From: Thermoplasmata archaeon
GTDB taxonomy: Archaea; Thermoplasmatota; Thermoplasmata; Sysuiplasmatales; Sysuiplasmataceae
Length of the DNA stretch: 64,000 nt
Direction: 5' to 3'
Assembly (NCBI GenBank): GCA_021817225.1
Contig: JAKAVR010000001.1
Span: 72,002-136,001, forward strand
Shown here: in pieces, positions 90-40,510 of the stretch
Position numbering within the stretch: position 1 is the first letter of the stretch
Layout of the letters: each line of letters opens with the position of its first letter
Translations under genes and position numbers: made by a program
Notes under the pieces: model-generated
The model's input: only the letters and a program-made list of their open reading frames with translations
Database searches by the model: none
Told to the model about the DNA's origin: nothing

Positions 90-2216
90 TCACGTCCCAC
101 TGTCCGCTGTCTTGAACCCTTTTTCAACTGCCTTGTCGTAAGCAACCATGGCCTGCTTTGCCTGCTTTGCAGTCGGCTCTCTTCCTCTTTGAAGTAACTT
201 GCCTACCGAGTAGAGAATACCTCTTTGCCAGCTTTCCAGATTACCAGTGACTCTCGCCCAACTGGACATTTCAAGCCAGACATTCGCCGGTATAGCTTTT
301 GTTTTATCGATCACGGCGGTGTCGTTATGATCGCCAGCGTAATTGTCCTTTGTGCCGTCAGTATGCCCAGATGCCTGGACTCCTATGGGCACCAATTCCA
401 ATCTCAGCTCTGGTGTCAAGTCTATGTCCAGATCGGCTAGAGAAGTCCAGCACTTTTCCCTTTTGCACCACTCGGTTATATTCTGGCCGTCGGGAGGATT
501 TGTTATGTGAGTGTGGACTCGATGGCTAAGAACCCGGATTTCATTAACAAGGGCAGGCGTAATACCTTGGTTTTCCCATATCTTCTGCAGATTGATACGC
601 TGGCCCGAAATATGCGAAATCAGAGCCAACACATATGTAACTACATTTGCCCGGTATCCGCCAAATCTCTCCGCGCTCACTATTTTCTCCGCCTGTTTGA
701 ACATTATGGCCTTGGCCACTAGGTTTTCAAAATACTGCTGATCTACACTGAGATCATGCCACTCACGCAAAGCTATTGAGAATTCAGCAAAATTCTTCTG
801 AGCTCCTCTACTCACAATGTGTGGAAGTTGATTCCACGTATTCTCGAATTTCGCCAGATCCGTCTTAGTGAAAACCTGATTTCGGGGGTGCATCACTTCA
901 AACACCCTTTCCTTTGTGGGGGTTCCTGACCTGACCTTTTCATCTAGATACTGTCCCCTTGCTCTTTCATAAAACCAGCGAGTGAGCTCTTTTCCTCCAG
1001 ACGGATCAGGTGCCCAGACAGTACGGGATAAAGACTCAACTTCCCGATGGAAGGGATCATTGGCGGCGAAATCTGCCAGATTGACTTTGTTCTGTGTGTT
1101 CGCATATCTGCTTATCAATGGAACAATCCTCTCGATATCATCAGTCTTGTTCACAACTGTCAATTTCATCTGAACTTGGATTTTAGACAGCTCTGCGCTG
1201 TCCCTACGCTTTGCGTGAAACAGCGATGCTGTCGTCTGACCTCCGTTTACAATCTGGAAGTCGGTCACTTTGAAAATTGCGAATCCGTCGTTGCCCTGTG
1301 ATCTCACATCTATACCGCTGGCGGTAACCGAGATTCCATTGTTGTATGTAAGGAACATGTCCGGTTCCTCAAGGATGCTGTTGCGAATGCCTTGGTTGAC
1401 TTTACCACGCGCCTGAAGGAAAGATCTCACATTCTTTTCCAGAATACGCGTTCCCCACTTTTCATATATTCTTCCCAATGTCTCACCAGGCACGATGGAA
1501 AGATAAGTACTGCAAAGACCAGTCTGATCCTGGGCCTTGAGACATCTCACAGGTCCTCCAAGCTGTTCAAAATCGATGACAATTTCCTCACGCTTCATCC
1601 CAGACGTTGCGCATCTGTATATGCGGTCGAGATCCCATAATTGATAACTGATTACAACATTTCCGTAATGTTCCTCGGAAATGGGCTCTCCGGGTGCGAC
1701 GCCATCAGTCAGTATGAAAATCCGGACACTGTCCAAATCGTCCTTCAACTCGAACAACGTTTGTGCGAGATCGAAGGCTTGGCTGGCCTCTTCGATGCGG
1801 CGATGGAGTCCTGAAAAACTGGCAATCAGGAAATTCTTCGCCTGTTTAGCAGCCTGTGCTACTTCCGTTCTTGACACTTTGGCAGGGGGGACATCATGTT
1901 TAAGATGGGTGACAAGGAGGTCAAGCATCCTATTGTCTTCGCTGATACTGTAGGCGTTAATTTTCATATCTTTCTTCTGATAGAAACAGACAAAAGTATC
2001 ATTCAGTTCACCAAATTCCTGCAGGTATTCGGCTATATTTTGGGTGAAGACGTCTTCTGTTTGGACGCCCTCAGGATCGGATTCCGTTTCTGAAGCCACC
2101 TTCAAGCGTAGTTCTTCAGCAAATGCGACAAACGGATCCTCGGTGATGATCATAGTTGTAAACCGCCTAATATCGGAAGTAAGCTTGTTTCCAAGTCCAC
2201 TTGGAATCTCAGACAA
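90..2216 (-). CDS. AIPR family abortive-infection protein
   Basis: 708 aa with the conserved 'NGGQTT' motif typical of AIPR. Last gene of the dcm-vsr-HATPase-Z1-PDEXK-AIPR arrangement and overlaps the upstream gene by 67 nt. Confidence 0.55.
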   Translation of the reverse strand: MSEIPSGLGNKLTSDIRRFTTMIITEDPFVAFAEELRLKVASETESDPEGVQTEDVFTQNIAEYLQEFGELNDTFVCFYQKKDMKINAYSISEDNRMLDLLVTHLKHDVPPAKVSRTEVAQAAKQAKNFLIASFSGLHRRIEEASQAFDLAQTLFELKDDLDSVRIFILTDGVAPGEPISEEHYGNVVISYQLWDLDRIYRCATSGMKREEIVIDFEQLGGPVRCLKAQDQTGLCSTYLSIVPGETLGRIYEKWGTRILEKNVRSFLQARGKVNQGIRNSILEEPDMFLTYNNGISVTASGIDVRSQGNDGFAIFKVTDFQIVNGGQTTASLFHAKRRDSAELSKIQVQMKLTVVNKTDDIERIVPLISRYANTQNKVNLADFAANDPFHREVESLSRTVWAPDPSGGKELTRWFYERARGQYLDEKVRSGTPTKERVFEVMHPRNQVFTKTDLAKFENTWNQLPHIVSRGAQKNFAEFSIALREWHDLSVDQQYFENLVAKAIMFKQAEKIVSAERFGGYRANVVTYVLALISHISGQRINLQKIWENQGITPALVNEIRVLSHRVHTHITNPPDGQNITEWCKREKCWTSLADLDIDLTPELRLELVPIGVQASGHTDGTKDNYAGDHNDTAVIDKTKAIPANVWLEMSSWARVTGNLESWQRGILYSVGKLLQRGREPTAKQAKQAMVAYDKAVEKGFKTADSGT

Positions 2217-3157
2217 GCAGACAGAGATATCTTGTAGTTGACTTCTGAAACTCCTTCCGGAACTTCGACGACCGAAGGGAATCCCTTCTCAACTCTGAAG
2301 AGAAACTCCTCCACCGCTTCATATTGAGCGGTGTATTCGGCAGCGTGAATGTCTAAATATCCTGCTTCCATCAGCTTCTGACGGAATAAATCAAATCCTG
2401 CCTGTTCAGTTTCAAATTCGGCCCGAAGCTCAGAAACTAACTCAGGAAGCGTCATTCCACCAGAACCCTTGGTCGCAACAGACAAGACGTACAAGTGAAG
2501 AGAAGGAATCCCCGCCGTATCGAGTTGGTGCTCGCTTGATATCCTAAAGGCGCGTGGTTCCTTTGAGCCAGTAGCTTTGACCTCCACTGAACCCCCGGGG
2601 AGTTCGAAATCATGAACCTTTTCTTCCGGGCCCTTCCAGCACTTCACTGCCGCCAACTTCGGAAGTCTGTGGAGAATGTGATATAGCATAAACCACAACT
2701 CTCCAAACAATCCAAGCTGTTCTTCGTGTGATAGCCCCTCAGGACTGTGAGTCATGAAAAACCGGTGCCATTTCTCAAAACGCTCAGAAAGAACGTATGG
2801 AACGTCCGGTCGCTTGCCTATAGGCGATAGCGTTTTATACAAGTCATTCGCAAACGCCGTGAATACATCTGTGAACCTTTCCGATATCAATGCAATCTTG
2901 ACAAGGATGGCATCTGGACTTTCAACATCTGTGGCAAGTTCAATCCGAATTTCTCTCCAGTTAGGGATGTTTCGTGGCTTAAATTGAATATGTGGTGCAA
3001 GTTCTACAATGAAAAGCCGTTGTCCGTTTATTAAATCGAGACCCAAGAAAAGGCCATCATCGCGTTCGGCGGTCAGCCGACGCCGCAAGATGCCTCCTTT
3101 AGTTCCGGGGGCTTCCGATCGCATCGATGTCCACAATGACTCAAAATCATCGCTCAT
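2150..3157 (-). CDS. PD-(D/E)XK motif nuclease-like protein
   Basis: 335 aa. 'GLFGELW ... HDFELPGGSVEVKATG' fits an E..D..EXK core. 4-nt overlap with the Z1 gene; synteny with Z1/AIPR. Confidence 0.5.
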   Translation of the reverse strand: MSDDFESLWTSMRSEAPGTKGGILRRRLTAERDDGLFLGLDLINGQRLFIVELAPHIQFKPRNIPNWREIRIELATDVESPDAILVKIALISERFTDVFTAFANDLYKTLSPIGKRPDVPYVLSERFEKWHRFFMTHSPEGLSHEEQLGLFGELWFMLYHILHRLPKLAAVKCWKGPEEKVHDFELPGGSVEVKATGSKEPRAFRISSEHQLDTAGIPSLHLYVLSVATKGSGGMTLPELVSELRAEFETEQAGFDLFRQKLMEAGYLDIHAAEYTAQYEAVEEFLFRVEKGFPSVVEVPEGVSEVNYKISLSACLRFQVDLETSLLPILGGLQL

Positions 3158-5982
3158 AGGTATTCGTCTTCGTAAACTTTGTTGACCACATAGTCTATTG
3201 CACGAGCATCGGGATTCGATGGAAAACTGATCGCAAGACCAATCACAGGCTCAGCGTAATGATCCCAACATGAAGCATCCGGGTCGATTGGGTATATTAG
3301 TAAGAGCCCCCTTGTTCTTGGTCTGTGGAGCCGGATGCTGGTCGGGGAGGGTATGTCTGGCTGCTCCTTTGCCACCGGAGCCTTGCCAGCCCCGCCTGCA
3401 GTCGCCTTCCGCCATGCTTCAATCGTGTATTCCAGAGCTGCTCCATATTCCTCCTTTGTCAAGTCTGAAGCTTCATGCTTGGGAGCCACTATTCTTTTCA
3501 AACCAACTTTGTCTTGAAAAATCAAGTCTTGTTCAAGCTTCCTTACAAAGCAGGAGATTGTCAATCCGCCAATAACCGCTTCACGTCCTTTATCACCTGA
3601 TTCGCGGCTAAGAAGTGAGACACACCACTTTGTGAGGTCTCCCTGTTCGACTTGCGACCTAATATATCTTACTAACAATTCAGTCTTTGCCCTTCTTGCA
3701 TCCGGATGCATGACGAAAGCGGACAGAAATCCGATTACGTCGTCCGCTGAGACATCGTCCCATATATGGCCGGGAGAATATGCATAAACGTTGTTGTTAT
3801 CGGCACGAGTCGGTTCTCCGAGGTGGGAGACAAACCGGTCAGTAGTCTGGAAATTGCTCTTTACAACCGATGGGTCTCTGTGAAAAACTAGGGTTTCATT
3901 CATAGTGTTGGAATAAGAAAGCTTCATTCTGGTACCAGAGCGCATCTTATTGATTGAGGTTATCAGAAGGCCACCGGGGTGTTGTCTCACTCTCAGGCCG
4001 AAATCGTTAGGTGTTGCACCGATGCTTTCCATGTGAATGAAGTCACGTCGGAGCTCCTCACTGGCCATAGCGATCCATCTGTACCAGCTGATCAGTTCCG
4101 GCGTTGTGTATATCCTGCAGAGATCGATATAGGTGTCTTTGTAGCCGAACCATCTACCCATCTGCAGCAAGGTGTCATACATACGTGTAGCACGGAGATA
4201 ATAGCTCGTGGTCAGACCTTCCAAAGTCAGACCCCTAGAAAGCTTGTCGCCTCCGATAGCGATGACTGAAACACCCTCGCTAGCATGTCTTCTGTAATCC
4301 AGAATGTCATTTGTGCTGCCGTTTATTGTTCTGATAATTATTTTAGAAGATGCGGTCTCAATTTCAGTCTGAATCTCTTCCCATGTTCTCATCAGTGAAG
4401 GATTCACTTTCGATGTTGTTGGAATGAAATCAGTCTCCCAAAGTTGCTTCAGTTTGTCCGTGATACTGTCCGATGAATCTCCATCTCCGTACCGCACTCT
4501 CCGCTGTATACTTTTCAGCTCCTCCGTGACTAGGTCGTACATCTGATTCTGAACAGACACGTATTTGGAGACGTGAATAAGCATGGAATTGTGCACTCTT
4601 TGTTCACCGCGTGCTGATCTTGCTGCGCAACTGAGTATGAAAGACAATATCGCTTCTTTTAGGGAACCGGGTAACTCCCGTACTGACCATAACTTGTCAT
4701 GACTATCAGGTATCAGAGTTTCGTTATCGATCACAGGGCGAAGTACTGGCATAGATTCTCTCAGTTCAAAGCCTAGTTCGTCGTCTCTGTCTATTCCAAA
4801 TACTTCCAGTGGTCCGATGTAGTTAGAAGGGGTGGGAAGACTTATAATGAAACTCTCAGGGAAAATATCTTCACCAAATCTAGTGTGTGGATTGCTTGGA
4901 TGAATGAATATGCTGGCGAATGGGGTCGCGGTATAGCCAACATATGCGCATTTCTCGAAGGCTTTCAGGAGGTTTCTTATTTCGGCATTGATTTTGGTCA
5001 CATCATAATCGGGGGCATTAAGTTCCAACGGCTTGGTATTTATCGATGCCTGATCGCACTCGTCATCTATAACCAGCAAGGGTACGCCCCGAATTAGTCC
5101 GTCATCTCCAGCAAGAATAGATCTTGCCCAACCGTTCAGGTTTCTAAGGACGGACACGTTCTTTTTTACAACTAGGAGAATGGGATCACCACCTGGCATA
5201 ACACCCACCTGTCTAGCGACTCTCTGATTGAAGTCCCCTTTGTCGTTGCTGCTTGTCAGAGAATGGATTCTCAGGAGACGCTCCCCTGAAAGTCTTCCCA
5301 CACCCATTCTGATATTGCCTTCGTCAAACTTGAGATTCTTGTCAGTATCATATCCCAGAAATTCATCGTCGAGACGGAACTGAGTCTGACTCCTCAGATT
5401 ATTATGGAGACCTGTCAGAACGAATATGAGCTTATATCCAGCATCTACTGCCTTGGAAATGAGGCCAATATAGTTCGAAGTCTTTCCAGATTGAACGCTC
5501 CCCACTACCATTCCACGCCGATCCCATTTCCCTTCACGTTTTGGATCTTCCAGTCTTTTGAGAATAGCTGTAGTCGTACGATCCATTGACCGTAGGACAT
5601 TTGGAGGCCACAACCTGACTTCCTGAAGGAATCGCTCATAGCGTTTCCAGAAATCCCACTTGATCTGAGGGCGATCCTCAGATATCACTGACATAGTGTC
5701 AGACAACCAGTCGATGTGGTCCTCCTTAACATCCAAGACTGAAATCGCACCGACCCATACATTCAGGCTAGTTTCGATGTCGATACAAAGCCTATTCACA
5801 TCACTTTCCTCTGCGTCAACCTCACAAGCCTCGAATGCAGTCTCCACTTTCCTTCGGATGAGATCCCTAGGAGGAGCCTCAACCGTGCTCAAGAGCTGCA
5901 GAGCAACAATTATGGCACGTTGATACTCCTGATCACTTATCATGTCAGTTCCCCAATAACGACTCAAGTTTAGCCAAAACAC
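3154..5982 (-). CDS. Z1 domain P-loop NTPase
   Basis: 942 aa with Walker A 'GSVQSGKTSNYIGL' followed by 'IFVLTGLHNNL'. Conserved partner of HATPase and AIPR in Dcm-linked clusters. Confidence 0.6.
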   Translation of the reverse strand: MFWLNLSRYWGTDMISDQEYQRAIIVALQLLSTVEAPPRDLIRRKVETAFEACEVDAEESDVNRLCIDIETSLNVWVGAISVLDVKEDHIDWLSDTMSVISEDRPQIKWDFWKRYERFLQEVRLWPPNVLRSMDRTTTAILKRLEDPKREGKWDRRGMVVGSVQSGKTSNYIGLISKAVDAGYKLIFVLTGLHNNLRSQTQFRLDDEFLGYDTDKNLKFDEGNIRMGVGRLSGERLLRIHSLTSSNDKGDFNQRVARQVGVMPGGDPILLVVKKNVSVLRNLNGWARSILAGDDGLIRGVPLLVIDDECDQASINTKPLELNAPDYDVTKINAEIRNLLKAFEKCAYVGYTATPFASIFIHPSNPHTRFGEDIFPESFIISLPTPSNYIGPLEVFGIDRDDELGFELRESMPVLRPVIDNETLIPDSHDKLWSVRELPGSLKEAILSFILSCAARSARGEQRVHNSMLIHVSKYVSVQNQMYDLVTEELKSIQRRVRYGDGDSSDSITDKLKQLWETDFIPTTSKVNPSLMRTWEEIQTEIETASSKIIIRTINGSTNDILDYRRHASEGVSVIAIGGDKLSRGLTLEGLTTSYYLRATRMYDTLLQMGRWFGYKDTYIDLCRIYTTPELISWYRWIAMASEELRRDFIHMESIGATPNDFGLRVRQHPGGLLITSINKMRSGTRMKLSYSNTMNETLVFHRDPSVVKSNFQTTDRFVSHLGEPTRADNNNVYAYSPGHIWDDVSADDVIGFLSAFVMHPDARRAKTELLVRYIRSQVEQGDLTKWCVSLLSRESGDKGREAVIGGLTISCFVRKLEQDLIFQDKVGLKRIVAPKHEASDLTKEEYGAALEYTIEAWRKATAGGAGKAPVAKEQPDIPSPTSIRLHRPRTRGLLLIYPIDPDASCWDHYAEPVIGLAISFPSNPDARAIDYVVNKVYEDEYL

Positions 5983-7486
5983 TCGGCATGCGATCGAACG
6001 GCTCTATAGAAGCCACTCGTTCATATGCGTCATTTGCCTCCAATCCCTCTCTAGTAAGAGCGTTGAAAATGTCTATCGCTCTCCGCTCCAGCGCTGCCTT
6101 GAATTCCCAGTCGTCTGAATCCGTAAAACAATCCGGATGCTCTGCATTCTCCATTACAATTGTCTGCAAAGGCACTGTATTCTCAACAAGCTCTATCAGC
6201 TCCCTTACCTTTCTAGCTGAGTATGAAGGCAGGTCCAGCGCATCCCTGACAATCGGATGTGAGCGGTTTATCTTGAAGAATACAGAATTGTGCCTGGACC
6301 TTCGCTCCCAAACGAGTTCGTAATTCAAAGCATGTTTTCGCTTCAGGATCCTTCCTCTGTTCCTGTAAACCTCACTGGCTCGAGCGCGAGTGACTTTTGC
6401 GATCCTAATCATGGGTCCGATCAATGCACCAGGAGGATACGCTACTCCTTTCTTTACGTCCACACGCCATTCATGATCCAATGTATTGGGAATGTCCACC
6501 TGTATTCTTGCCAGTTTGTAGTGCTCTTCTTGTTTGAAACCCAGATCGAGCCAACTTCCGGGAACAATGAGTCTCTCGTTCCGGTAAATGTAGAAACCCT
6601 GTTGTGCATTCCATCCCCGCGGACCAGCAGCAAGTTCGTGAATCGTCTCATCCAGACGGGACTTGTGTGGTAGGACGAAAGGGTGGACATTAAGCGATTT
6701 CCCGAAGATTTCAAGCGCCTCTTTACTGAGCTCTTGTGTTGCATCTTCATTCTTCAGGAAGGGATCCCATGCCTTTACAGCTTTGTTGTTGATATGGATT
6801 CTAAGCCGATCCTTGCCAGAAATGAATCTGTGGAATGTCATCGCAATGTGGCGTTCCACGATTTCCACTTTGGATAGGAATCGGTTCTTGGCATCGCTGC
6901 TGTCAGTTCCACTTTGATCAACTACCCTATCCAATCGTTGCCAAATAACCAATGTTCCATGATCTTCAATATTATTGAGCATTGATAACAACGGTTCTGT
7001 TTCCGATAGGGGGTGTTTCCGTAGCTCCCAATCTTTGAGTTTATCAATTAGGTCAAGATCCCAGGAACGCGTAGTATCGTGACCAGACGCTGTCTTGGAT
7101 CTGACTGTGAGTAATCTGCATTGGGACAGGGATGCCGTTTTGAGCCCGAGACCAAATCTGCCGAGATCGTCTGCGTTTCGTTCTTCAAGGGGGCTCTTAC
7201 TGCCGACCCTCATTGCTTCTGTTAGTTCGTTAGTTGCCATTCCACGGCCATCGTCCAGAATTGTGATGTGAGATTGTGGTCCCGACCAGTGAAAATCTAT
7301 CCAGACATTCTTAGTGCCGGCATAAATGCTATTGTCTACAATGTCTGCGACAGCAGCTTCGAGTGTGTAGCCAAAAGCCCTCAATGCTTCGAACATAGCA
7401 TCTGCTCTTGGGGGAACTTTCTCAAATTCTGACAGATCTATCGTTTCCACCAATTCAACCTCCTCTCGTGCGAGGCTTCTGTCCAT
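5945..7486 (-). CDS. GHKL/HATPase_c-type ATP-binding protein
   Basis: 513 aa with an N-box-like 'DIVDNSIYAG' and 'ILDDGRGM' G1-box near the N-terminus. Overlaps the Z1 gene by 38 nt. Confidence 0.6.
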   Translation of the reverse strand: MDRSLAREEVELVETIDLSEFEKVPPRADAMFEALRAFGYTLEAAVADIVDNSIYAGTKNVWIDFHWSGPQSHITILDDGRGMATNELTEAMRVGSKSPLEERNADDLGRFGLGLKTASLSQCRLLTVRSKTASGHDTTRSWDLDLIDKLKDWELRKHPLSETEPLLSMLNNIEDHGTLVIWQRLDRVVDQSGTDSSDAKNRFLSKVEIVERHIAMTFHRFISGKDRLRIHINNKAVKAWDPFLKNEDATQELSKEALEIFGKSLNVHPFVLPHKSRLDETIHELAAGPRGWNAQQGFYIYRNERLIVPGSWLDLGFKQEEHYKLARIQVDIPNTLDHEWRVDVKKGVAYPPGALIGPMIRIAKVTRARASEVYRNRGRILKRKHALNYELVWERRSRHNSVFFKINRSHPIVRDALDLPSYSARKVRELIELVENTVPLQTIVMENAEHPDCFTDSDDWEFKAALERRAIDIFNALTREGLEANDAYERVASIEPFDRMPSVLAKLESLLGN

Positions 7487-7824
7487 CTTCTACGGATGGA
7501 GGCATAATTGCAGCATCCGGACTTATAAAGATTGGTTGCAGAATCTCCCCTTTATTACTCAAGAAACGGCAAGAGTGCAACTGCCATTAAATTGAATACT
7601 CAGAAATTATATTACGAAGAAGATGATTTGATAGTTCTCCAATTCTCATACAGACTTACTCACTTCGTTCCTTGAAAAGTAATCTGCCATCGGAGCAGAT
7701 GTCCTAGGATGAAATATTACTAACTAAAGATCCTATGCGTGAGAGGAATTCTATATTACCACTGCCGGCTTCCAGCTGCTTATATTGTTGACAGCCGCTG
7801 TCCTGTATTCGGAGTAGAATTGCG

Positions 7825-8607
7825 TCAAGACTGGTTTGCCTTAACAACAGCCGGCGTAACTCTTGGACCTATCAGATTGGCTGATTGGCTTACGGAACCT
7901 TTCTTGGTTGATACTTCGACTCTAAGGACAGAAATCTCTCTTGCCCTGCCATCCAATCTGAAGTACAACTCCTGTACAACTTCTTCATTTGTGTGCAAAT
8001 TGATTTTCTGTTCGTAGCGTCCATTAAGCTCCTCATGGCCATCAATTCTCATTTTCACGTTCAATGGTATGCTAATTGCCAGCTTGATCTCGGTTAACGA
8101 ATTCGTCTTATTTTGAATAAATAAGGTTATAGAATCCTCACTATACTCATTGTATATCTCAAACTCATGAGGAGTTAATTCAAATCGGAGCTTTCTCCAA
8201 TACCTAGAGTTAAGCATGCCCCTCCAAATAGGTATTGATGTGAATGCTGAAATCACCAAAGGGAATAATAGTCGTTCCCAGACAGCATTACTAAGGACAA
8301 ACAGTATCTGTTCAGATATGACAAAGACGCTTGCGACTGAAAACAACATCGTACTAACATCTAGGGCATCTTGCCCATACTTAAGAGTTGAGAATTGATC
8401 AAACGGCAATCTTGTGTAATTTCTGATGGTGGTTAGAAGCACCAGCTGGATTATGCCAAAAGAAAAAAACACTGCATAGGCCGCCAGATAAGCTTTGAAT
8501 CCAGCAGTTATAGCCCCAAAAACCATCACGAATATGGATATGGTCATCTGGAGCTCGAATTTGTAGTCTATCATAGGAATCAGGCCCTTATCGAAGGTAC
8601 TTCCCAA
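7825..8607 (-). CDS. hypothetical membrane protein (N-terminal ~4 TM helices, C-terminal soluble domain)
   Basis: 260 aa. Strongly hydrophobic N-terminal half ('ISIFVMVFGAITAGF', 'AVFFSFGIIQLVLLT', 'MLFSVASVFVISEQILFVL', 'LFPLVISAFTSIPIW') and a charged C-terminal half. AT-rich codon usage unlike its neighbours. 20-nt overlap with the upstream ORF. Confidence 0.45.
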   Translation of the reverse strand: MGSTFDKGLIPMIDYKFELQMTISIFVMVFGAITAGFKAYLAAYAVFFSFGIIQLVLLTTIRNYTRLPFDQFSTLKYGQDALDVSTMLFSVASVFVISEQILFVLSNAVWERLLFPLVISAFTSIPIWRGMLNSRYWRKLRFELTPHEFEIYNEYSEDSITLFIQNKTNSLTEIKLAISIPLNVKMRIDGHEELNGRYEQKINLHTNEEVVQELYFRLDGRAREISVLRVEVSTKKGSVSQSANLIGPRVTPAVVKANQS

Positions 8608-9595
8608 GCGTGTCGAGAAAGATTTTGCTAAGAATATCTATAACGTCACTCTTTATGGAGGGATCGCCTATACCGCTTCCCAACTCATTGATGTAAACCT
8701 CTGCAACGTATTGCCCGCTGATCAGTAAAACAAACCCTACTCTGAAAGCAAATCGAACGTCCTTGTAGATGAGACGACCTCCGATGTTCAGTATTTTGCC
8801 TCCGTGAACATCAATTTCCTCTCTCACATCCGGGTGGTTGAAAATATCCTCCCTACCTCTAAATGATTTCTCTTTTATCTTACCAGTGGGATAATAAAAT
8901 TTCATCGTGTTTATTTCTATAGAGCGCCCAAGACCTCCTGTGTTATGTGCACCACACCTGTTCGCCATTTCGCGAATGATGTGGCTGAATTTGTCTTCAA
9001 GAACCTTACTGTTTGCACTCAGAATTGTTGGTGAAGCATGCATTATACCCAAGTCTTTCATTGCGGAAAGAACGCTACAAGCCGCTGAAGAACTGCCCAT
9101 GAGTTGTGTCAATTTATCGTGAGTGCCAAATCGTAATCCGACATGCACATCTCTCTTCACGACCTGAAGATTGAAATTCGCATCCAAATCCGTGTTGGTG
9201 GACAAATACCAATATGTGGTCAATAATGCACCATCGGAGACGTGAGTCTCTTTTGTGTCAAATCCGTTCTCCTCCACGTGTTGGTCCTTGTCATCCAGTT
9301 TGAAGGGGTTTTTGTTAACTATTGAGTTTATAGCTCCCACTGTCTGTGGCTTCTCAAGGGCACACCACACAAGATTTACTGGCTCTAGCTCGTCGTTGAG
9401 ATATTCGTATGTCCTGACAAAGAGATTGACATCGTCTGGAGTAGAGCGACTAATCAATGATGCGATAATTTCCTGTCTGCTATTCAAACGGACACCCTCT
9501 AGCTTTCCCCGCCCCAACCTGAGTAACAATCTCAATGGAAGTGCTTTCAATAAATTGGTAAGTTGCTCTTCACTGAGGTCTTCATCCACGGTCAT
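8588..9595 (-). CDS. hypothetical protein (no recognisable motif)
   Basis: 335 aa in a clean ORF, translationally coupled to the membrane protein, in an AT-rich segment. No signature I can assign. Confidence 0.45.
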   Translation of the reverse strand: MTVDEDLSEEQLTNLLKALPLRLLLRLGRGKLEGVRLNSRQEIIASLISRSTPDDVNLFVRTYEYLNDELEPVNLVWCALEKPQTVGAINSIVNKNPFKLDDKDQHVEENGFDTKETHVSDGALLTTYWYLSTNTDLDANFNLQVVKRDVHVGLRFGTHDKLTQLMGSSSAACSVLSAMKDLGIMHASPTILSANSKVLEDKFSHIIREMANRCGAHNTGGLGRSIEINTMKFYYPTGKIKEKSFRGREDIFNHPDVREEIDVHGGKILNIGGRLIYKDVRFAFRVGFVLLISGQYVAEVYINELGSGIGDPSIKSDVIDILSKIFLDTLGKYLR

Positions 9596-10215
9596 TCACC
9601 TCACTAAGATCATTCTTTCCATTTAATCTATGGAATTCAGAATTGGAATCGTCCAAATGTTCATCCAAAACCTTTGTCAAAGATGCAAAACTTACTGAGA
9701 ACGACCACCTAATCATGCTACTGGCAGAGATTTCTAAATTCTCGCAAGATCACATTGCGAATCGAATGTCTATTCCCTTGGGCAATAAAATGCCAATAGA
9801 CGATAACCGTCTGCCTTTCCACCAAGCAAAGTAAGACAGTATGACCATTTAAAACTAATTCTTCGTCTCTGTTCCCAGACAAGTTCAATTCATTAGTGAC
9901 TTGTGTTTCAGATTCTTGCAAGCGATAGAATGGCAAAAGGTAAGTGAATTCCGCAGAGGTTCAATGTGGCATGTGGCCTAATTAACGCAAATGACATTAC
10001 AATTGCAAAGACATCACTTAAACCGCTTATTCCCCTTCTCATACCGGATTTCGCGAACAAGTAGACTGAAATGGCTTAGAAAGTCACGCACAGTCTAGCA
10101 TTGCTTTCACTCTTTGATATGAATTTGAACCGTCATCAAGATGGATTTCCTCTAAAGAAAAGCAACAATTAAGTTGAACACTCACTCAGAAGTCAAATGC
10201 AAAAGCGTGGCATCA

Positions 10216-10647
10216 TCAGATATTTCTTATGCCATGATTAGATGCTGGACCTATGACTTTCACAACTCTTGCTAACTCCCTCTCAAACTGCTCTTTGATT
10301 TCGCATTCCCACAAAGTGACCACCCTCCATCCCATTGCTTTTAACTGCCCATTTACTCTCTTGTCCCTATTCTTGTTGTTCCCAAGTTTCTCAGCCCAGA
10401 AATCATGCCTTGTGGTAGGAATAGTCGATAACTTGCAACCATGCGAGTGCCAAAAGCAGCCGTTAATGAATAATGCCACCCTTTTCTTAGGGAAGACAAT
10501 GTCTGGGTGGCCAGGCAACGAAGAACGTAATCTGTACCTGAAGCCTAATGCATGCAGAGCCTTTCTCACTTCCAATTCCAACGATGTGTTACTGGACCTT
10601 ATTCTTGACATATTCCAGCTTCGACGCTCTTTGCTTATCTTGTCCAC
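10216..10647 (-). CDS. vsr: very-short-patch repair endonuclease
   Basis: 143 aa with 'DIVFPKKRVALFINGCFWHSHGC' matching the Vsr core, immediately downstream of the C5-methyltransferase. Confidence 0.8.
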   Translation of the reverse strand: MDKISKERRSWNMSRIRSSNTSLELEVRKALHALGFRYRLRSSLPGHPDIVFPKKRVALFINGCFWHSHGCKLSTIPTTRHDFWAEKLGNNKNRDKRVNGQLKAMGWRVVTLWECEIKEQFERELARVVKVIGPASNHGIRNI

Positions 10648-10805
10648 GGCTTCAGTCTCCCCATTTTTCTATAAACTGCTATGAGATGAGCGGGTCAATA
10701 TAATTTCTGGATTAATTGTGGCCTTTACCGGATTTGAGTAGTGTCCTGGGGGCAGCGGTAGTTCAAATTAACCGAAACCAAGTGGGCAGGCAAAGACATG
10801 TGCCA

Positions 10806-12413
10806 CTAGGCATCCGCGATTCTCGATATTGGTTTTTGGTGATTTTCGGGGTCTTGACTACACGCTTTCGAAAGTATTCCGTACACAATCCCGGCTATCT
10901 GGTACGCGAGATAAGGCGGAACTGCATTTCCTATCTGTATGTACTGCTCCGTTCTGCTACCTTCGAAGTAATAATTATCTGGAAATGTCTGTATGCGAGC
11001 TGCCTCTCTGACTGTAAGGCTCCGACATTGCCTTGGATCGGGATGAATGTAGTAGTGGCCATCTTTGCTTATGTGAGACATTATTGTAGTCGCTGGTCTT
11101 GTACTCACTTGCACCCGGAACCTGTCAGTAAAACTGTTCTTGACTTTAGCTGACTTCTTCGCACTTTTATGTTTTGGTTTCAATTCCTTCGGAAAATCTC
11201 TCAGAGTTGGGCTTTTCTTGTTCACCTTGGCGTAACAGGCTGCATAAAAGTACCTGTAGAGATCCCTACGCATGTGAGATCGCGCAGTGTGATTGCACAC
11301 ACCTTGCATCCGGAGATCGCAATACCATTTATTGAGGTAGGCCGTAGGATATTGACCCTTAATGAAGTCACATCCGGTTCCTGCAGCGGGCGGCCGTATC
11401 ATTCTCAACTGGTTTACCATGTAATCCCTCAATTTGTTCCCACATGGTCTCTGGATTATTGACCCCATCCAAGAGCGATCTTCTTGATTCCTCAACAATT
11501 TCAGCCATTTTGCATCAGAATCCGCGCTCTGTGAATACATACTTCTCAACTTTGGTAATCCTCCAATAACCTTTGATATTGGAATTTCATCCTGTAAGGC
11601 TAGACCCCCCGGATTCTGGACATTCAGATCATTCCTTATTCCCAGCAGAATGACTCTGTGTCTCGATTGGGGGATACCGTGCAATTCGGATTTCACCACC
11701 GCAGTGTAGGGAGAATTGTCGTCAATTAGTCCCTCGCTGGTCAATGAGTATATGGAATATGTATGATGATAGCTTTCAAGCGTATCACGTCCCTCTCTTT
11801 CAAGTGCTTCAGCAGGATTGCGCAGATCGCCAAGCATTCTGCCGAATATTCCCTGTTCCTTGAAAGTTGCCGAGAGCAATCCCTTTACATTTTCCATAAT
11901 GAAAACAGCAGGTTTGTGATCTGACAATATCTGAAGGTATTCCACGTACAGTTTCTGTCTGACATCTTTTTCAGGATCATATTTGGGGTTGCCAGCGTTC
12001 CTAGATCTACCTGCGAGAGAATACGCCTGACAAGGTGGTCCGCCGATCAAAACACTATTGTCTGTCCGCTGCAATCGGTCGTTGATTTTACTGCGTATGT
12101 CCATTATCGTTTTTCGGTCGGCTCCTATTGAGGCTTTCAAGCTCCTTTCAGCTGCGGCTTTGGCTGCGACTGGATAAGATGCATAGAGGGCATCAATCCC
12201 GATTTCTCTACGTAAGTATTGATAATATTCTTCAGGTATATGGGGCCAAGAAAGGTGAAAAAACGATCTCAGCTTGAGAGTTCTGAAAGCATAATCTTCC
12301 TTCTCTATCGATAATACAATTTCAAATTTCCTATCTCCCTGTGCATCAGCAAACGACGAAAATCCCTCGCCGAGCCCGCCGGGGCCAGCAAAAAGGTCGA
12401 CAACTTTGAACAT
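10806..12413 (-). CDS. dcm: DNA (cytosine-5)-methyltransferase
   Basis: 535 aa. Motif I 'VVDLFAGPGGLGEGF', motif IV 'GGPPCQAYSLAGR', motif VI 'ENVKGL', motif X 'QIGNAVPPYLAYQI'. Confidence 0.85.
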   Translation of the reverse strand: MFKVVDLFAGPGGLGEGFSSFADAQGDRKFEIVLSIEKEDYAFRTLKLRSFFHLSWPHIPEEYYQYLRREIGIDALYASYPVAAKAAAERSLKASIGADRKTIMDIRSKINDRLQRTDNSVLIGGPPCQAYSLAGRSRNAGNPKYDPEKDVRQKLYVEYLQILSDHKPAVFIMENVKGLLSATFKEQGIFGRMLGDLRNPAEALEREGRDTLESYHHTYSIYSLTSEGLIDDNSPYTAVVKSELHGIPQSRHRVILLGIRNDLNVQNPGGLALQDEIPISKVIGGLPKLRSMYSQSADSDAKWLKLLRNQEDRSWMGSIIQRPCGNKLRDYMVNQLRMIRPPAAGTGCDFIKGQYPTAYLNKWYCDLRMQGVCNHTARSHMRRDLYRYFYAACYAKVNKKSPTLRDFPKELKPKHKSAKKSAKVKNSFTDRFRVQVSTRPATTIMSHISKDGHYYIHPDPRQCRSLTVREAARIQTFPDNYYFEGSRTEQYIQIGNAVPPYLAYQIAGIVYGILSKACSQDPENHQKPISRIADA

Positions 12414-12580: not shown

Positions 12581-12880
12581 TCACCCCATAAGGACTTCGT
12601 CCATCTTTTTCAGCAATTCGGCAACCTTCTTACCTTTTTGCGTCAGGTTCAACATGTTTCTTGGAGGGTACGAAGAGGTATCTCGCCGGACTGTAATCAC
12701 ACCCAATTCCTTTGCCTTTTCAACAGATGCATATAACGGGTTGGGATATAGATGATACTCGTCGATAAGTTTCTGGAAGTTTATCTCTCCTGCGTGGTTT
12801 AGAATCACCAGGAGCCGAAGCAGACTTGACTGGCGTTCAAAAGGTTTCAGGTTTTCTCCTAGCATAGGCATTGTTTCCAT
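12581..12880 (-). CDS. small winged-helix DNA-binding protein (element-borne regulator)
   Basis: 99 aa with HTH-like 'NFQKLIDEYHLYPNPLYASVEKAKELGVITV'. Sits between dcm and the integrase. Confidence 0.35.
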   Translation of the reverse strand: METMPMLGENLKPFERQSSLLRLLVILNHAGEINFQKLIDEYHLYPNPLYASVEKAKELGVITVRRDTSSYPPRNMLNLTQKGKKVAELLKKMDEVLMG

Positions 12881-13173: not shown

Positions 13174-13428
13174 GTGAAGTTTGATCGAACGCTTCAGAGG
13201 AGTTGCAGGGGATGTGGCTTCTATTACCTTTCACCGGCTGAGAAATGGTGTTGTTCATGGTTGAGTGATTTCACGGTCACAGCCATGATTACTGATGGAG
13301 GTAACGCTGTATACTATCTGGGACTGGATGATGACAGACCCTGGTTGAAGTTGAAAGACCTCAAATTCTGTCCTTTTTGCGGAGATCGATTCGAACTTTC
13401 ATCCAACAGGGTAGAAATTGAGAGGTGA
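13174..13428 (+). CDS. small Zn-ribbon protein
   Basis: 84 aa with 'CRGCGFYY' and 'CPFCGDRF' CxxC pairs. 4-nt overlap with the integrase start. Confidence 0.35.
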   Translation: MKFDRTLQRSCRGCGFYYLSPAEKWCCSWLSDFTVTAMITDGGNAVYYLGLDDDRPWLKLKDLKFCPFCGDRFELSSNRVEIER

Positions 13429-14429
13429 ACAAAATGGACACGCCGAATGATCATGCGCAGTTCAGGCAAAAACTCAATGAATTCCGATTGTGGGCTTCAG
13501 GGTGCGGCCGATTCTCATTCTCGACAGTTGCCCGCCAGGTGAGACGCCTTCAATATATATCAAAACATATGGACCTCCTAGAATTCAATCTGTCTGATAT
13601 TTACACCTACATTGAAGCAGAACTCAAGAAAGGAAAGAAGAAGAAGTCTGTAAACAACGACATGAAGGATGTCCAGGCATGGCTCGATTTCCTTGGCAAG
13701 CATATAGACCTTCCACGGTTCAAGGGAGAACCAGCTCCAGAACCCTGGATGCCCACGGATGACCAGCTCTCACAGATAATCCGTTACTGCCGGAAGAATT
13801 CAAACAAGGGCTTGGCAAAACGCAACGAACTGATGTTTGAAATACTTGCATTCGGGGGTCTGCGTATTGGCGAGATGCTTGGGCTGAATATCGAGGATGT
13901 TACTCAAAGAGGCATCTATGTACGTTCAGAGAAAGGTGAACGGGATCGGACCGTAGGCCTTCCGGATGGCCTAATCATCTCCCTCGAGGAATACATTCAT
14001 GCATACCGCTACAACACGGATCCCAAAGCCCTGTTTACAAGCAGTCGCGGGAGAATAGAATACAATTACACAAGGAACCTGATCAAGAGAATTGGCATCG
14101 CGCTGGGTATGCCTCTTCTTCACGCACATGCACTAAGACATTATTGTGCCACAAGCCTGTTGAAAGGCTTCTTTGGCTCTGAACCGCTCGACATCAGGGA
14201 GGTTCAAATCCATCTGGGACATGCCCGCATCGAGACGACAGCAATTTATACTCATATTTCGCAAAAGGAGGTGGCGGAGCATGTGCGACTCCGCTACAAT
14301 TCCTTCTTTCCAGACAGTCACGGGCAAGGAGAAACGGAAATCGTAATTGCAGAAGAGGTGACAGGTTCGTATCCCAGTGAATCCGAACCAGAACTATGTG
14401 CGGCTGCCGGGATTCGAACCCGAGTTTGA
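13425..14429 (+). CDS. int: tyrosine recombinase / integrase
   Basis: 334 aa with catalytic-region motifs 'ARHYCATSLL', 'HLGHARIETTAIYTHIS' (R..HxxR..Y). The last ~31 nt overlap the 3' half of tRNA-Gly. Confidence 0.85.
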   Translation: MNKMDTPNDHAQFRQKLNEFRLWASGCGRFSFSTVARQVRRLQYISKHMDLLEFNLSDIYTYIEAELKKGKKKKSVNNDMKDVQAWLDFLGKHIDLPRFKGEPAPEPWMPTDDQLSQIIRYCRKNSNKGLAKRNELMFEILAFGGLRIGEMLGLNIEDVTQRGIYVRSEKGERDRTVGLPDGLIISLEEYIHAYRYNTDPKALFTSSRGRIEYNYTRNLIKRIGIALGMPLLHAHALRHYCATSLLKGFFGSEPLDIREVQIHLGHARIETTAIYTHISQKEVAEHVRLRYNSFFPDSHGQGETEIVIAEEVTGSYPSESEPELCAAAGIRTRV

Positions 14430-14469
14430 AGCTTGGGAAGCTTCAGTCCTACCACTAGACTACAGCCGC
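14399..14469 (-). tRNA. tRNA-Gly(CCC)
   Basis: The minus-strand read GCGGCTGTAGTCTAGTGGTAGGACTGAAGCTTCCCAAGCTTCAAACTCGGGTTCGAATCCCGGCAGCCGCA folds as a canonical cloverleaf. 7-bp acceptor, D-arm GTCT/GGAC, anticodon loop TTCCCAA, T-loop TTCGAAT. Confidence 0.85.
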
Positions 14470-39515: not shown

Positions 39516-40510
39516 TTGTAGATATCCCTCTTCATGTCGCACTTCCAGATAAGCTGCGCCGACTGTGGCTGTTTCCCCAAAGAGTGCAGGAAAAGCGCTT
39601 CAACTGAAACTTGTCCCAACTGCAGGCTTGCCGTCTGCTGTTGCTGGCCCGTTACCTGAATCATTCCGGTTAACCTTTTGGTGCAAGGCTCATAAGGCCC
39701 TCAACAGGATAGCACACCGCCACACATGGCGGCGGTGCCGAATGGTGTGCCCGGCATGAATGGAGGTCAGAAGGTGAAAGTCCTTTACGGGGTTGCAGCA
39801 GCGACCGTTAGCCGAACGACAAGGGTGTCAGCCGCGAGGCTGAATCCGAAGGAAGTCGCAGGCAAAGTCCCGGCCCGACGAACAGAAACCGTATATGAGG
39901 CGGAGAACAGACAGGGTGAGTTCGCCATCCAGAACAAAACACAATCGCCGCAAGTGTCTGTTTGCGTATATGCGGCGGGTATATGGGATGAAGGCATCCG
40001 TTCTTACCCGGGGAGATCTGGCATCATGCGGCAGCATGTGAAACGGACCGGAGTTTCGTCCGTACAAGCATGTTGCGGTAAACAGTGCAGCAATGCACTG
40101 CCGAGATGCCAGAAGTCAGCAGAAGCCATAGTACATGCGGGAGCATGGAAGGGCAGAAGGTCAGTAATGGAGTGACAACGTTGAGTTCGAGTTCAGGGCA
40201 GAGAAGACAGAAAACCTCGAATGAGGGCCGCCATGCGGGAGGAACGGTGAAACCGCTCGAACTGCATGGGGCGTCCAGTCCTGAGACGGCACGAGACGCA
40301 GTGTCAACCAGAGCAGACAGCATCTGCTTCAAAACTGACTAACCGCTGTATGCCGGACGGTACGTACAGTGGTGTGGGAGGTCGGGAGTTAATCACTCCC
40401 TCCTGCCCGATATATTCGGCCAATAACATCTGTTTTCAACAGACCGACCTGTTACTCTGCATTTCCACTTCCGGGCAATAATATATATCGGCGCAACGAT
40501 CCGAATTGAT

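Follow-up and report, generated by a model that had tools for sequence, protein, structure and literature searches.

In this study, we analysed a 64,000 nt stretch of DNA from a Thermoplasmata archaeon (contig JAKAVR010000001.1, positions 72,002 to 136,001; hereafter the window) and report that the genes between window positions 90 and 12413 almost certainly constitute a defence system of the MORC type that belongs to the Mza family, is linked to Dcm and Vsr, and is carried on an element of about 18.1 kb integrated at a tRNA-Gly(CCC) gene of a euryarchaeon. The system is of an already known kind, having been described computationally in 2008 and validated as an anti-phage system in 2020, and the Dcm- and Vsr-linked configuration found here is the commonest one for Mza. 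An initial annotation of the window had recognised six components, namely a Dcm methylase, a Vsr endonuclease, a GHKL ATPase, a Z1 NTPase, a PD-(D/E)XK nuclease and an AIPR protein, as a complete locus of a poorly characterised kind, and had regarded an archaeal copy as notable. The six open reading frames (ORFs) lie at the coordinates it gave, co-oriented on the minus strand. What it said of poor characterisation holds for the mechanism, as a sequence search of solved structures found no solved relative of MzaB, MzaC, MzaD or MzaE, but not for the system, which has been named mzaABCDE and whose operons were already described in PMC2292703. Only modest interest attaches to the archaeal host and to the clean boundaries of the element, since a Methanoregula metagenome-assembled genome (MAG) has a related locus and archaeal copies were noted in PMC2292703. 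The sole potentially new component is a pair of genes, here termed U333 and TM249, which lies between mzaB and vsr and which the annotation did not mention; the six genes are indeed intact, but they do not form an uninterrupted block.

The name mzaABCDE is that of Gao et al. (2020), as cited in PMC10855318 and PMC9523054, and the family is listed as 'mza' in PADLOC, as 'Gao_Mza' in DefenseFinder and as NF041932-NF041935 in NCBIfam. Four proteins of the locus matched the PADLOC models (MzaB 1.5e-106, MzaC 5.4e-194, MzaD 5.2e-27 and MzaE 1.2e-100), and these matches together with the gene calls place the homologs next to one another, in one orientation and in the order MzaB-MzaC-MzaD-MzaE, as expected of Mza. 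Matches to Pfam, PADLOC and NCBIfam span each model almost fully. The NCBIfam models for MzaB to MzaE were likewise matched nearly end to end, with scores at about 36-51% of the equivalog cut-offs: 436 bits for MzaB (cut-off 850), 728 for MzaC (1500), 151 for MzaD (420) and 437 for MzaE (436.9 unrounded; 1050). By these scores the locus is a distant member of Mza, which falls outside the narrow, enterobacteria-centred equivalog that covers the tested type.

Domain assignments were made with Pfam, in which all matches given below (AIPR_N, AIPR, DUF4420, HATPase_c_3, Vsr and DNA_methylase) exceeded the gathering cut-offs, and conservation was judged by alignment with annotated bacterial orthologs. 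mzaB (5945..7486, minus strand) encodes a 513 aa ATPase of the MORC type with GHKL and S5 domains (HATPase_c_3, 2.6e-32). Its GHKL N-box (DNS) and both G-boxes (DDGRGM and GRFGLGLKTAS) are conserved in comparison with three bacterial orthologs, and residues 297-307 (GFYIYRNERLI) fit the S5 motif GhXhhpXXRhl, which is the defining feature of MORCs (PMC2292703). MzaC retains the Walker A motif GxVQSGKT and the sequence DDEAD, and it also carries the helicase motif described for the superfamily II (SFII) helicase of MORC operons, which has a C-terminal DThhQXuRhFG domain (PMC2292703). mzaD (2150..3157, minus strand) encodes a DUF4420 PD-(D/E)XK nuclease of 335 aa (1.5e-64), in which E153, D183 and E192-V-K194 are invariant in five sequences and make up an E-D-ExK constellation that aligns with the enterobacterial homologs. 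mzaE (90..2153, minus strand) encodes a 687 aa protein from the called ATG, with AIPR_N (3e-40) and AIPR (3e-101) domains and an invariant QIVNGGQTT motif; its longest ORF extends to 2216. Thus the assignments of the AIPR, PD-(D/E)XK, HATPase, Vsr and DNA_methylase domains made in the initial annotation are borne out, and the motifs that it named (Dcm I, IV, VI and X, the Vsr core, the GHKL N-box, the MzaC Walker A, E-D-EVK and NGGQTT) are all conserved and intact. Catalytic motifs are intact in all six proteins, and all six ORFs are full length.

The spacing of the genes had to be revised. Overlaps of 67, 4 and 38 nt had been proposed, of which the 4 nt overlap of mzaC and mzaD stands; the other two values come from the longest ORFs, which begin at TTG or GTG. 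We used the gene calls on public contigs with the same sequence, in which MzaE and MzaC begin at downstream ATG codons, and in these mzaD and mzaE overlap by 4 nt and mzaB and mzaC are separated by a gap of 1 nt.

No ORF of the locus matches the sigma-70-like MzaA, the first component of mzaABCDE. MzaA is sigma-70-like and present in 'only a few' related systems according to PMC9523054, and in Thalassospira it is a fusion of ankyrin repeats with a sigma-70 domain. As a homolog was found in only 25 of the 80 related loci described below, in line with the 'only a few' of PMC9523054, MzaA can be considered accessory and not defining, and a sigma factor of this type could not act on an archaeal RNA polymerase. 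We also considered whether the methylase might be the MzaA of this locus and ruled this out, MzaA being sigma-70-like. In comparison with mzaABCDE, the locus thus lacks the sigma-70/ankyrin protein and has a linked cognate Dcm and Vsr, an archaeal host and an unrelated gene pair that interrupts the operon.

An earlier and more complete description of this gene neighbourhood than that of mzaABCDE is the account of prokaryotic MORC and paraMORC restriction-modification operons by Iyer, Abhiman & Aravind (2008), a purely computational work with three archaeal MORCs only, in which cytosine methylases, Vsr and AIPR proteins are frequent (PMC2292703). The present locus shares with those operons the MORC GHKL plus S5 ATPase, the SFII helicase and the E-D-ExK nuclease of the restriction endonuclease fold, as well as the cytosine methylase, Vsr, AIPR, lateral mobility and occasional archaeal occurrence; we see no essential difference, and the locus adds defined element boundaries and the inserted gene pair. 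The comparison with published Dcm-associated multi-gene systems suggested in the initial annotation leads to the Mza/MORC operons. MADS resembles the locus only in the broad notion of several defence genes grouped with a methylase, and was ruled out as its identity: it is an eight-gene mad1-8 operon with a kinase, a subunit for specificity and a methylase (bioRxiv 10.1101/2023.03.30.534895), a composition that the locus does not have, and PADLOC, which called the locus Mza, recognised MADS as no known system. The two are unrelated.

The two remaining genes of the six encode the methylase and the repair enzyme. dcm (10806..12413, minus strand) specifies a C5-cytosine DNA methyltransferase of 535 aa (DNA_methylase, 2.3e-48) with a long variable region at about residues 270-440 and with intact motifs I (FAGPGG), IV (GPPCQ), VI (ENV), VIII (QSRHR) and X (GNAVPP). 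It scores 137.5 bits with NCBIfam TIGR00675 (cut-off 100.65) and shares 41% identity, from end to end, with the Dcm that accompanies Mza on Agrobacterium pDG3-1d. vsr (10216..10647, minus strand) specifies a very-short-patch repair endonuclease for T:G mismatches of 143 aa (Vsr, 2.9e-28; NCBIfam TIGR00632, 148.5 bits, cut-off 97.85); it has kept D49 and FINGCFWHSHGC, and the His cluster (CFWHSHGC) is present along with the catalytic Asp. The pairing of a C5 methylase with Vsr, and the intact catalytic motifs, are common to this pair and to Dcm-Vsr of Escherichia coli, which acts at CCWGG and in very-short-patch repair and for which the role of Vsr in offsetting the deamination of 5-methylcytosine is established. 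Unlike the E. coli enzyme, the Dcm described here has 535 aa and the long variable region, and its match to NF007772, the model for Dcm of the E. coli type, is local only (62 bits); furthermore, this pair is not solitary but linked to a restriction-like module.

In order to place the locus within its family, genomes representing one species each were scanned with an alignment of MzaC, which yielded at least 567 loci; the same kind of scan with the single MzaC sequence found no close relative. A tblastn search of plasmids recovered canonical bacterial Mza loci. Among the matches listed, the best MzaC match was that of the Methanoregula MAG with 45% identity, followed at near-equal identity by cyanobacteria, Chloroflexota, actinomycetes, Firmicutes, proteobacteria and Bacteroidota. 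Gene neighbourhoods were counted in the top 80 related loci, with Dcm and Vsr counted within 10 kb. The order B-C-D-E and its spacing are constant over the related loci, with homologs of MzaB in 79, of MzaD in 72 and of MzaE in 71 of the 80. Dcm was present in 64/80 loci and Vsr in 52/80, and 34/80 had a Dcm of the same full-length architecture of about 535 aa, long variable region included; 27 of these 34 enzymes are 38-47% identical to the present Dcm, which is the divergence range of MzaC. This architecture occurs in both gene orders, with Dcm either upstream of mzaB or, in the sigma-factor-type loci, downstream of mzaE, and in Agrobacterium the dcm gene overlaps mzaB by 11 nt. On account of these frequencies and of the shared architecture, Dcm/Vsr linkage is the normal state of the Mza family, and the methylase family of about 535 aa behaves, as far as co-inheritance can tell, as a cognate partner of the Mza core. 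The two inserted genes, the integrase and the Mrr-like gene discussed below were found in none of the 80 loci (0/80).

Based on these findings, we suggest that MzaBCDE together with Dcm and Vsr could form an ATP-dependent restriction-modification system that restricts the invader directly, a reading to which we assign a probability of roughly 0.5 and for which the co-inheritance statistics, comparative as they are, provide the main new support. According to this model, the 535 aa Dcm would methylate cytosine at C5 within a specific sequence of the host and thereby mark host DNA as self, and Vsr would nick beside the T in T:G mismatches that arise by deamination of 5-methylcytosine, which would offset the mutational burden that comes with the methylase. 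Unmarked DNA would be translocated or looped, as in the looping and translocation model proposed in PMC2292703, by the MzaC motor together with the MzaB MORC clamp; these two would deliver the MzaD nuclease, which would then cut the DNA. MzaE would be a fourth, essential-looking subunit, for which target recognition or reading of the methylation state is our guess. The outcome would be direct restriction of the invader with no suicide of the host. By inference, a methylation mark, a translocating or looping NTPase motor and a PD-(D/E)XK cutter are what such a system would have in common with the NTP-dependent restriction enzymes of Type I, Type III and McrBC.

Experimental support comes from E. 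coli, in which mzaABCDE gave 10^3- to 10^4-fold protection against phage T4 with unmodified cytosine, T4(C), or hydroxymethylcytosine, T4(hmC), and less against glucosylated DNA (bioRxiv 10.1101/2022.06.16.496414). In the same work, purified MzaD, the E. coli homolog, was able to cleave DNA, and mutation to D187A or P297A impaired it. Residues D183 and P294 of the archaeal MzaD align with enterobacterial D188-190 and P298-300 and, from the alignment, are likely the equivalents of the mutated D187 and P297. Beyond this preprint, our literature search found no mechanistic paper on Mza and no main-text discussion of Mza in archaea.

Several points weigh against this restriction-modification model. 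In vitro, MzaD cut DNA with cytosine, hydroxymethylcytosine or glucosylated hydroxymethylcytosine (ghmC) equally well (bioRxiv 10.1101/2022.06.16.496414), so that discrimination must lie elsewhere. Virus resistance by Mza has been shown solely for enterobacterial systems (Gao et al., 2020, as cited in PMC10855318; bioRxiv 10.1101/2022.06.16.496414), and the tested systems have the sigma-factor-like MzaA and no adjacent methylase (PMC9523054). The low equivalog scores given above make extrapolation from those systems to the present locus a stretch, and the expression and activity of the locus in the archaeal cell are predictions from its genes. Toxicity in E. coli has not been reported for the enterobacterial Mza with no linked methylase. 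The argument that Dcm would protect from MzaBCDE is one purely from co-inheritance (64/80 loci with Dcm, 34/80 with the same architecture); no Dcm was found nearby in 16/80 loci, some of them on truncated contigs, and in the archaeal locus itself the insertion splits dcm-vsr from mzaBCDE. Finally, the two enterobacterial loci of the set, L066 and L083, have MzaA and neither Dcm nor Vsr within 10 kb, unlike most other sigma-type loci, which have Dcm/Vsr. Enterobacteria have a resident chromosomal dcm-vsr, and it is a speculative idea that enterobacterial Mza, having no linked methylase, depends on the resident Dcm of the host.

Alternatively, MzaBCDE could be a methylation-independent, infection-triggered nuclease system, which would sense a DNA structure, replication intermediate or protein specific to the phage and then degrade DNA, with Dcm and Vsr as a separate, solitary pair travelling along in the same defence islands. 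In favour of this idea are the tested mzaABCDE with its sigma-like MzaA and no methylase, its activity in E. coli against T4 whether the phage has C, hmC or ghmC, the two enterobacterial loci and the unrelated insertion that parts dcm-vsr from mzaBCDE. However, Dcm is present in 80% of loci, and a single Dcm architecture that is co-inherited across phyla with a divergence like that of MzaC and in two gene orders is hard to explain by hitch-hiking on islands. The overlap of dcm with mzaB in Agrobacterium also speaks against it, and the resident dcm-vsr of enterobacteria could substitute for a linked pair. We regard methylation-independent action as rather unlikely.

Restriction-like and abortive-infection-like action had both been predicted in the initial annotation, and the evidence favours the former. 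For the latter to apply, the AIPR protein, with or without the nuclease, would kill or arrest the infected cell, and the methylase would be an antidote or a regulator. The AIPR family is named after abortive-infection proteins, and MzaE also matches the PADLOC model AbiU (5.1e-24), but this match covers only a part of the AIPR domain (residues 257-428). Moreover, in the sole growth experiment published so far, E. coli cells with mzaABCDE showed no growth arrest or collapse at a multiplicity of infection (MOI) of 5, a high MOI (bioRxiv 10.1101/2022.06.16.496414), and the conserved trio of helicase, ATPase and nuclease fits DNA targeting (PMC2292703). Abortive infection is in our view very improbable, and direct restriction by a restriction-modification system remains the preferred reading.

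With regard to the host and the element, the archaeal origin and the location on a tRNA-integrated mobile element that had been claimed for the locus are both well supported. Genes in the flanks pass the cut-offs of archaeal models, namely TFB with 541 bits (cut-off 384), Spt5 with 182 (70) and glycerol-1-phosphate (G1P) dehydrogenase with 424 (413); PriL, the EndA splicing endonuclease, archaeal L10/P0 and an archaeal-type PorA (PorA_Arch) were also matched, as were deoxyhypusine synthase and two FtsZ paralogs. The window contains no rRNA gene. ENA metagenome contigs, 110.8 kb and 26 kb long, match the window almost exactly, with 1-2 mismatches in 13 kb. On them the island is connected to the same archaeal genes, which makes a chimeric assembly unlikely. 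G+C content falls to 0.42-0.48 in the island, from 0.50-0.56 elsewhere in the window. A XerA-like tyrosine integrase (13425..14429, plus strand; Pfam Phage_integrase 1.1e-27), which with NCBIfam XerA_Arch reaches 123.7 bits and thus stays below the cut-off of 220, overlaps with its last 32 nt the tRNA-Gly(CCC) gene (14398..14469, minus strand), the integration target, which was detected by ARAGORN and with 68.3 bits by the Rfam tRNA model. The proximal core of the attachment site (att), TATGTGCGGCTGCCGGGAT (14395..14413), is a 19 nt exact direct repeat of the tRNA 3' end. There is no second copy within the window; an exact distal copy was located only on the source contig, 3.7 kb beyond the edge of the window (window coordinates -3697 to -3679; L001 16837-16855). 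In 200 shuffles the longest match was 12 nt, and the 19 nt repeat at both ends gives an element of about 18.1 kb. With an integrase at a tRNA gene, a distal direct repeat and a drop in G+C content, this is a tRNA-integrated mobile element, and it was probably acquired from bacteria, by a direct or an indirect route.

From its distal att onwards, the element comprises a gene for a 408 aa unknown protein, an IS630-type transposase, a 299 aa protein with a marginal match to Mrr_cat, mzaE, mzaD, mzaC, mzaB, the two inserted genes, vsr, dcm, a winged-helix protein, two small ORFs, the integrase and the tRNA. The small winged-helix protein (12581..12871, minus strand) has a Pfam HTH_34 match below the cut-off (2e-4) and a match to a PHROG transcriptional regulator (2.8e-6), and is probably, as these matches suggest, a regulator that belongs to the element. 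No Rfam match was obtained in the locus or near the distal att.

A further possibility is that the locus is an inactive passenger, a recent bacterial import that would be unexpressed or non-functional with archaeal transcription and chromatin and would be heading for decay. Its G+C content is 5-10 points under that of the host flank, a foreign two-gene module interrupts it, the element also has the IS630-type transposase, and in the closest archaeal relative, that of Methanoregula (L015), Dcm is apparently in several ORFs. Against this, none of the six ORFs is truncated, no catalytic motif is damaged, and near-identical sequence is found in independent assemblies. In addition, a TATA-like element, TTTATAA (7523..7529, minus strand), which we read from the sequence as a candidate archaeal TATA box, lies about 40 nt upstream of the mzaB ATG, and through it mzaBCDE may have an archaeal promoter of their own, downstream of the insertion. 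An inactive passenger thus seems improbable to us. The Methanoregula locus (L015 3800-6200) has an upstream Dcm that appears split into ORFs of 242, 227 and 103 aa with 71% query coverage, which could reflect a decaying methylase or assembly errors.

The interruption of the locus lies in the interval of about 2.7 kb between the end of mzaB (7486) and the start of vsr (10216), which holds two further co-oriented genes. U333 (8588..9589, minus strand) encodes a soluble protein of 333 aa with a conserved GRxDIFxHP motif, and TM249 (7825..8574, minus strand) a membrane protein of 249 aa with four predicted N-terminal transmembrane (TM) helices and a beta-rich C-terminal domain. At 0.42, the pair has the lowest G+C content in the island. 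Neither protein was matched by a Pfam, PADLOC or PHROG model. The U333 family is very rare, with 23 relatives in a set of 1.84 billion representative proteins, and a single homolog of TM249, with 50% identity, was found among 5.8 billion proteins. A 45% identical homolog of U333 was missed by the word-indexed search and was recovered through the context of the TM249 homolog. In all recovered contexts, the gene for a U333 homolog (325-342 aa) has that for a TM249 homolog (237-273 aa) immediately after it; for these TM249 homologs, hydropathy and alignment of the partners predict three or four N-terminal TM helices together with a C-terminal domain rich in beta structure. Mza was present in none of the contexts recovered elsewhere, which are defence islands or integrated elements on archaeal contigs. 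The neighbours are either genes for HEPN_AbiV-like, NOV_C and RNase H-like (RNase_H_2) proteins, or an MmeI-type restriction-modification system with GmrSD, or Orc1/Cdc6, a Halo_toxin gene and an integrase, on an integrase-bearing element.

The AlphaFold (AF2) model of U333 is confident (pLDDT 88.7, pTM 0.82), and a fold search in the PDB gave no convincing match (template-modelling scores, TM, of 0.26 or less). Among predicted viral structures, U333 has weak matches (E 1e-7, TM 0.40-0.50) to phage proteins with the annotation RdgC or 'exonuclease'; this likeness has no sequence-profile support in the PDB or Pfam and no tblastn match in phages. U333 is also unrelated to MzaA. U333 and TM249 are a mobile module of two genes, independent of Mza and not part of it, that was inserted into a variable slot between the methylase and mzaB. 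The company that the pair keeps hints at a possible role in defence. We consider it tentatively possible, without favouring the idea, that the pair is an undescribed archaeal defence or abortive-infection pair, or else a sensor/effector that joins Mza as an accessory by way of its variable slot.

The interval between the methylase and mzaB is such a slot: it holds MzaA in some loci, three genes in Hymenobacter and the orphan pair here. On the Hymenobacter plasmid (L004 1833-6515), the three genes encode a double-HATPase protein, a hypothetical protein and a NOV_C protein, and in several loci 1.3-4.6 kb separate Dcm from mzaB.

Mza is widespread and is routinely counted in defence surveys. What the present comparison contributes is a lead on its mechanism, in that the Mza core, in bacteria of different phyla and on into archaea, is inherited along with Vsr and one distinctive family of cytosine methylases of about 535 aa; this co-inheritance makes the restriction-modification reading directly testable. 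The archaeal copy is a cleanly bounded example of a bacterial-type defence system that has reached an archaeon on an integrative element, without the sigma-factor subunit. The orphan U333/TM249 pair is a minor clue to immune systems peculiar to archaea, a subject that recent surveys call under-explored (PMC12988326).

A few further observations concern the element and its surroundings. Directly downstream of mzaE, starting about 135 nt to the left of window position 1 (L001 13293-14192), the 299 aa protein shows a marginal match to the Mrr_cat restriction-endonuclease domain (21.6 bits, cut-off 21). In Thalassospira the position downstream of mzaE is held by an enzyme with AspBHI_N and Mrr_cat domains, AspBHI being a member of a family of 5-methylcytosine-dependent enzymes. 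None of the 80 related loci has a homolog of the 299 aa protein, and the Mrr_cat likeness at this position may thus be coincidental. At the other end of the element, the att core lies within the last 35 nt of the integrase ORF, which ends inside the tRNA gene, and to judge from this overlap excision would replace the last few residues of the integrase.

Low G+C content extends past the distal att into genes for Fic, MazE-PIN, PIN and IS4. A 28 nt sequence, CGGGATATACGCATTAAGGTTCGAATCC, overlaps the end of the distal att core and runs outward, and a copy with 26/28 identical positions lies about 1.3 kb further out, so that the two bracket a Fic gene (L001 16800-16900 and 18098-18126; window about -3740 to -3640 and about -4970). 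The T-loop-like sequence GGTTCGAAT occurs three times where 0.24 occurrences are expected, and neither a tRNA nor an Rfam match was found in this region of CGGGATATACGCATTAAGGTTCGAATCC and GGTTCGAAT. These repeats may be remnants of older or nested integrations. Lastly, on the archaeal chromosome at window positions 39828-40154 (plus strand), domains of a group II intron RNA were detected (Rfam group-II-D1D4-3, 137.7 bits; D1D4-1, 63.4 bits); the ORFs downstream of it are short (159 and 188 aa), and hence the intron-encoded protein may be degraded.

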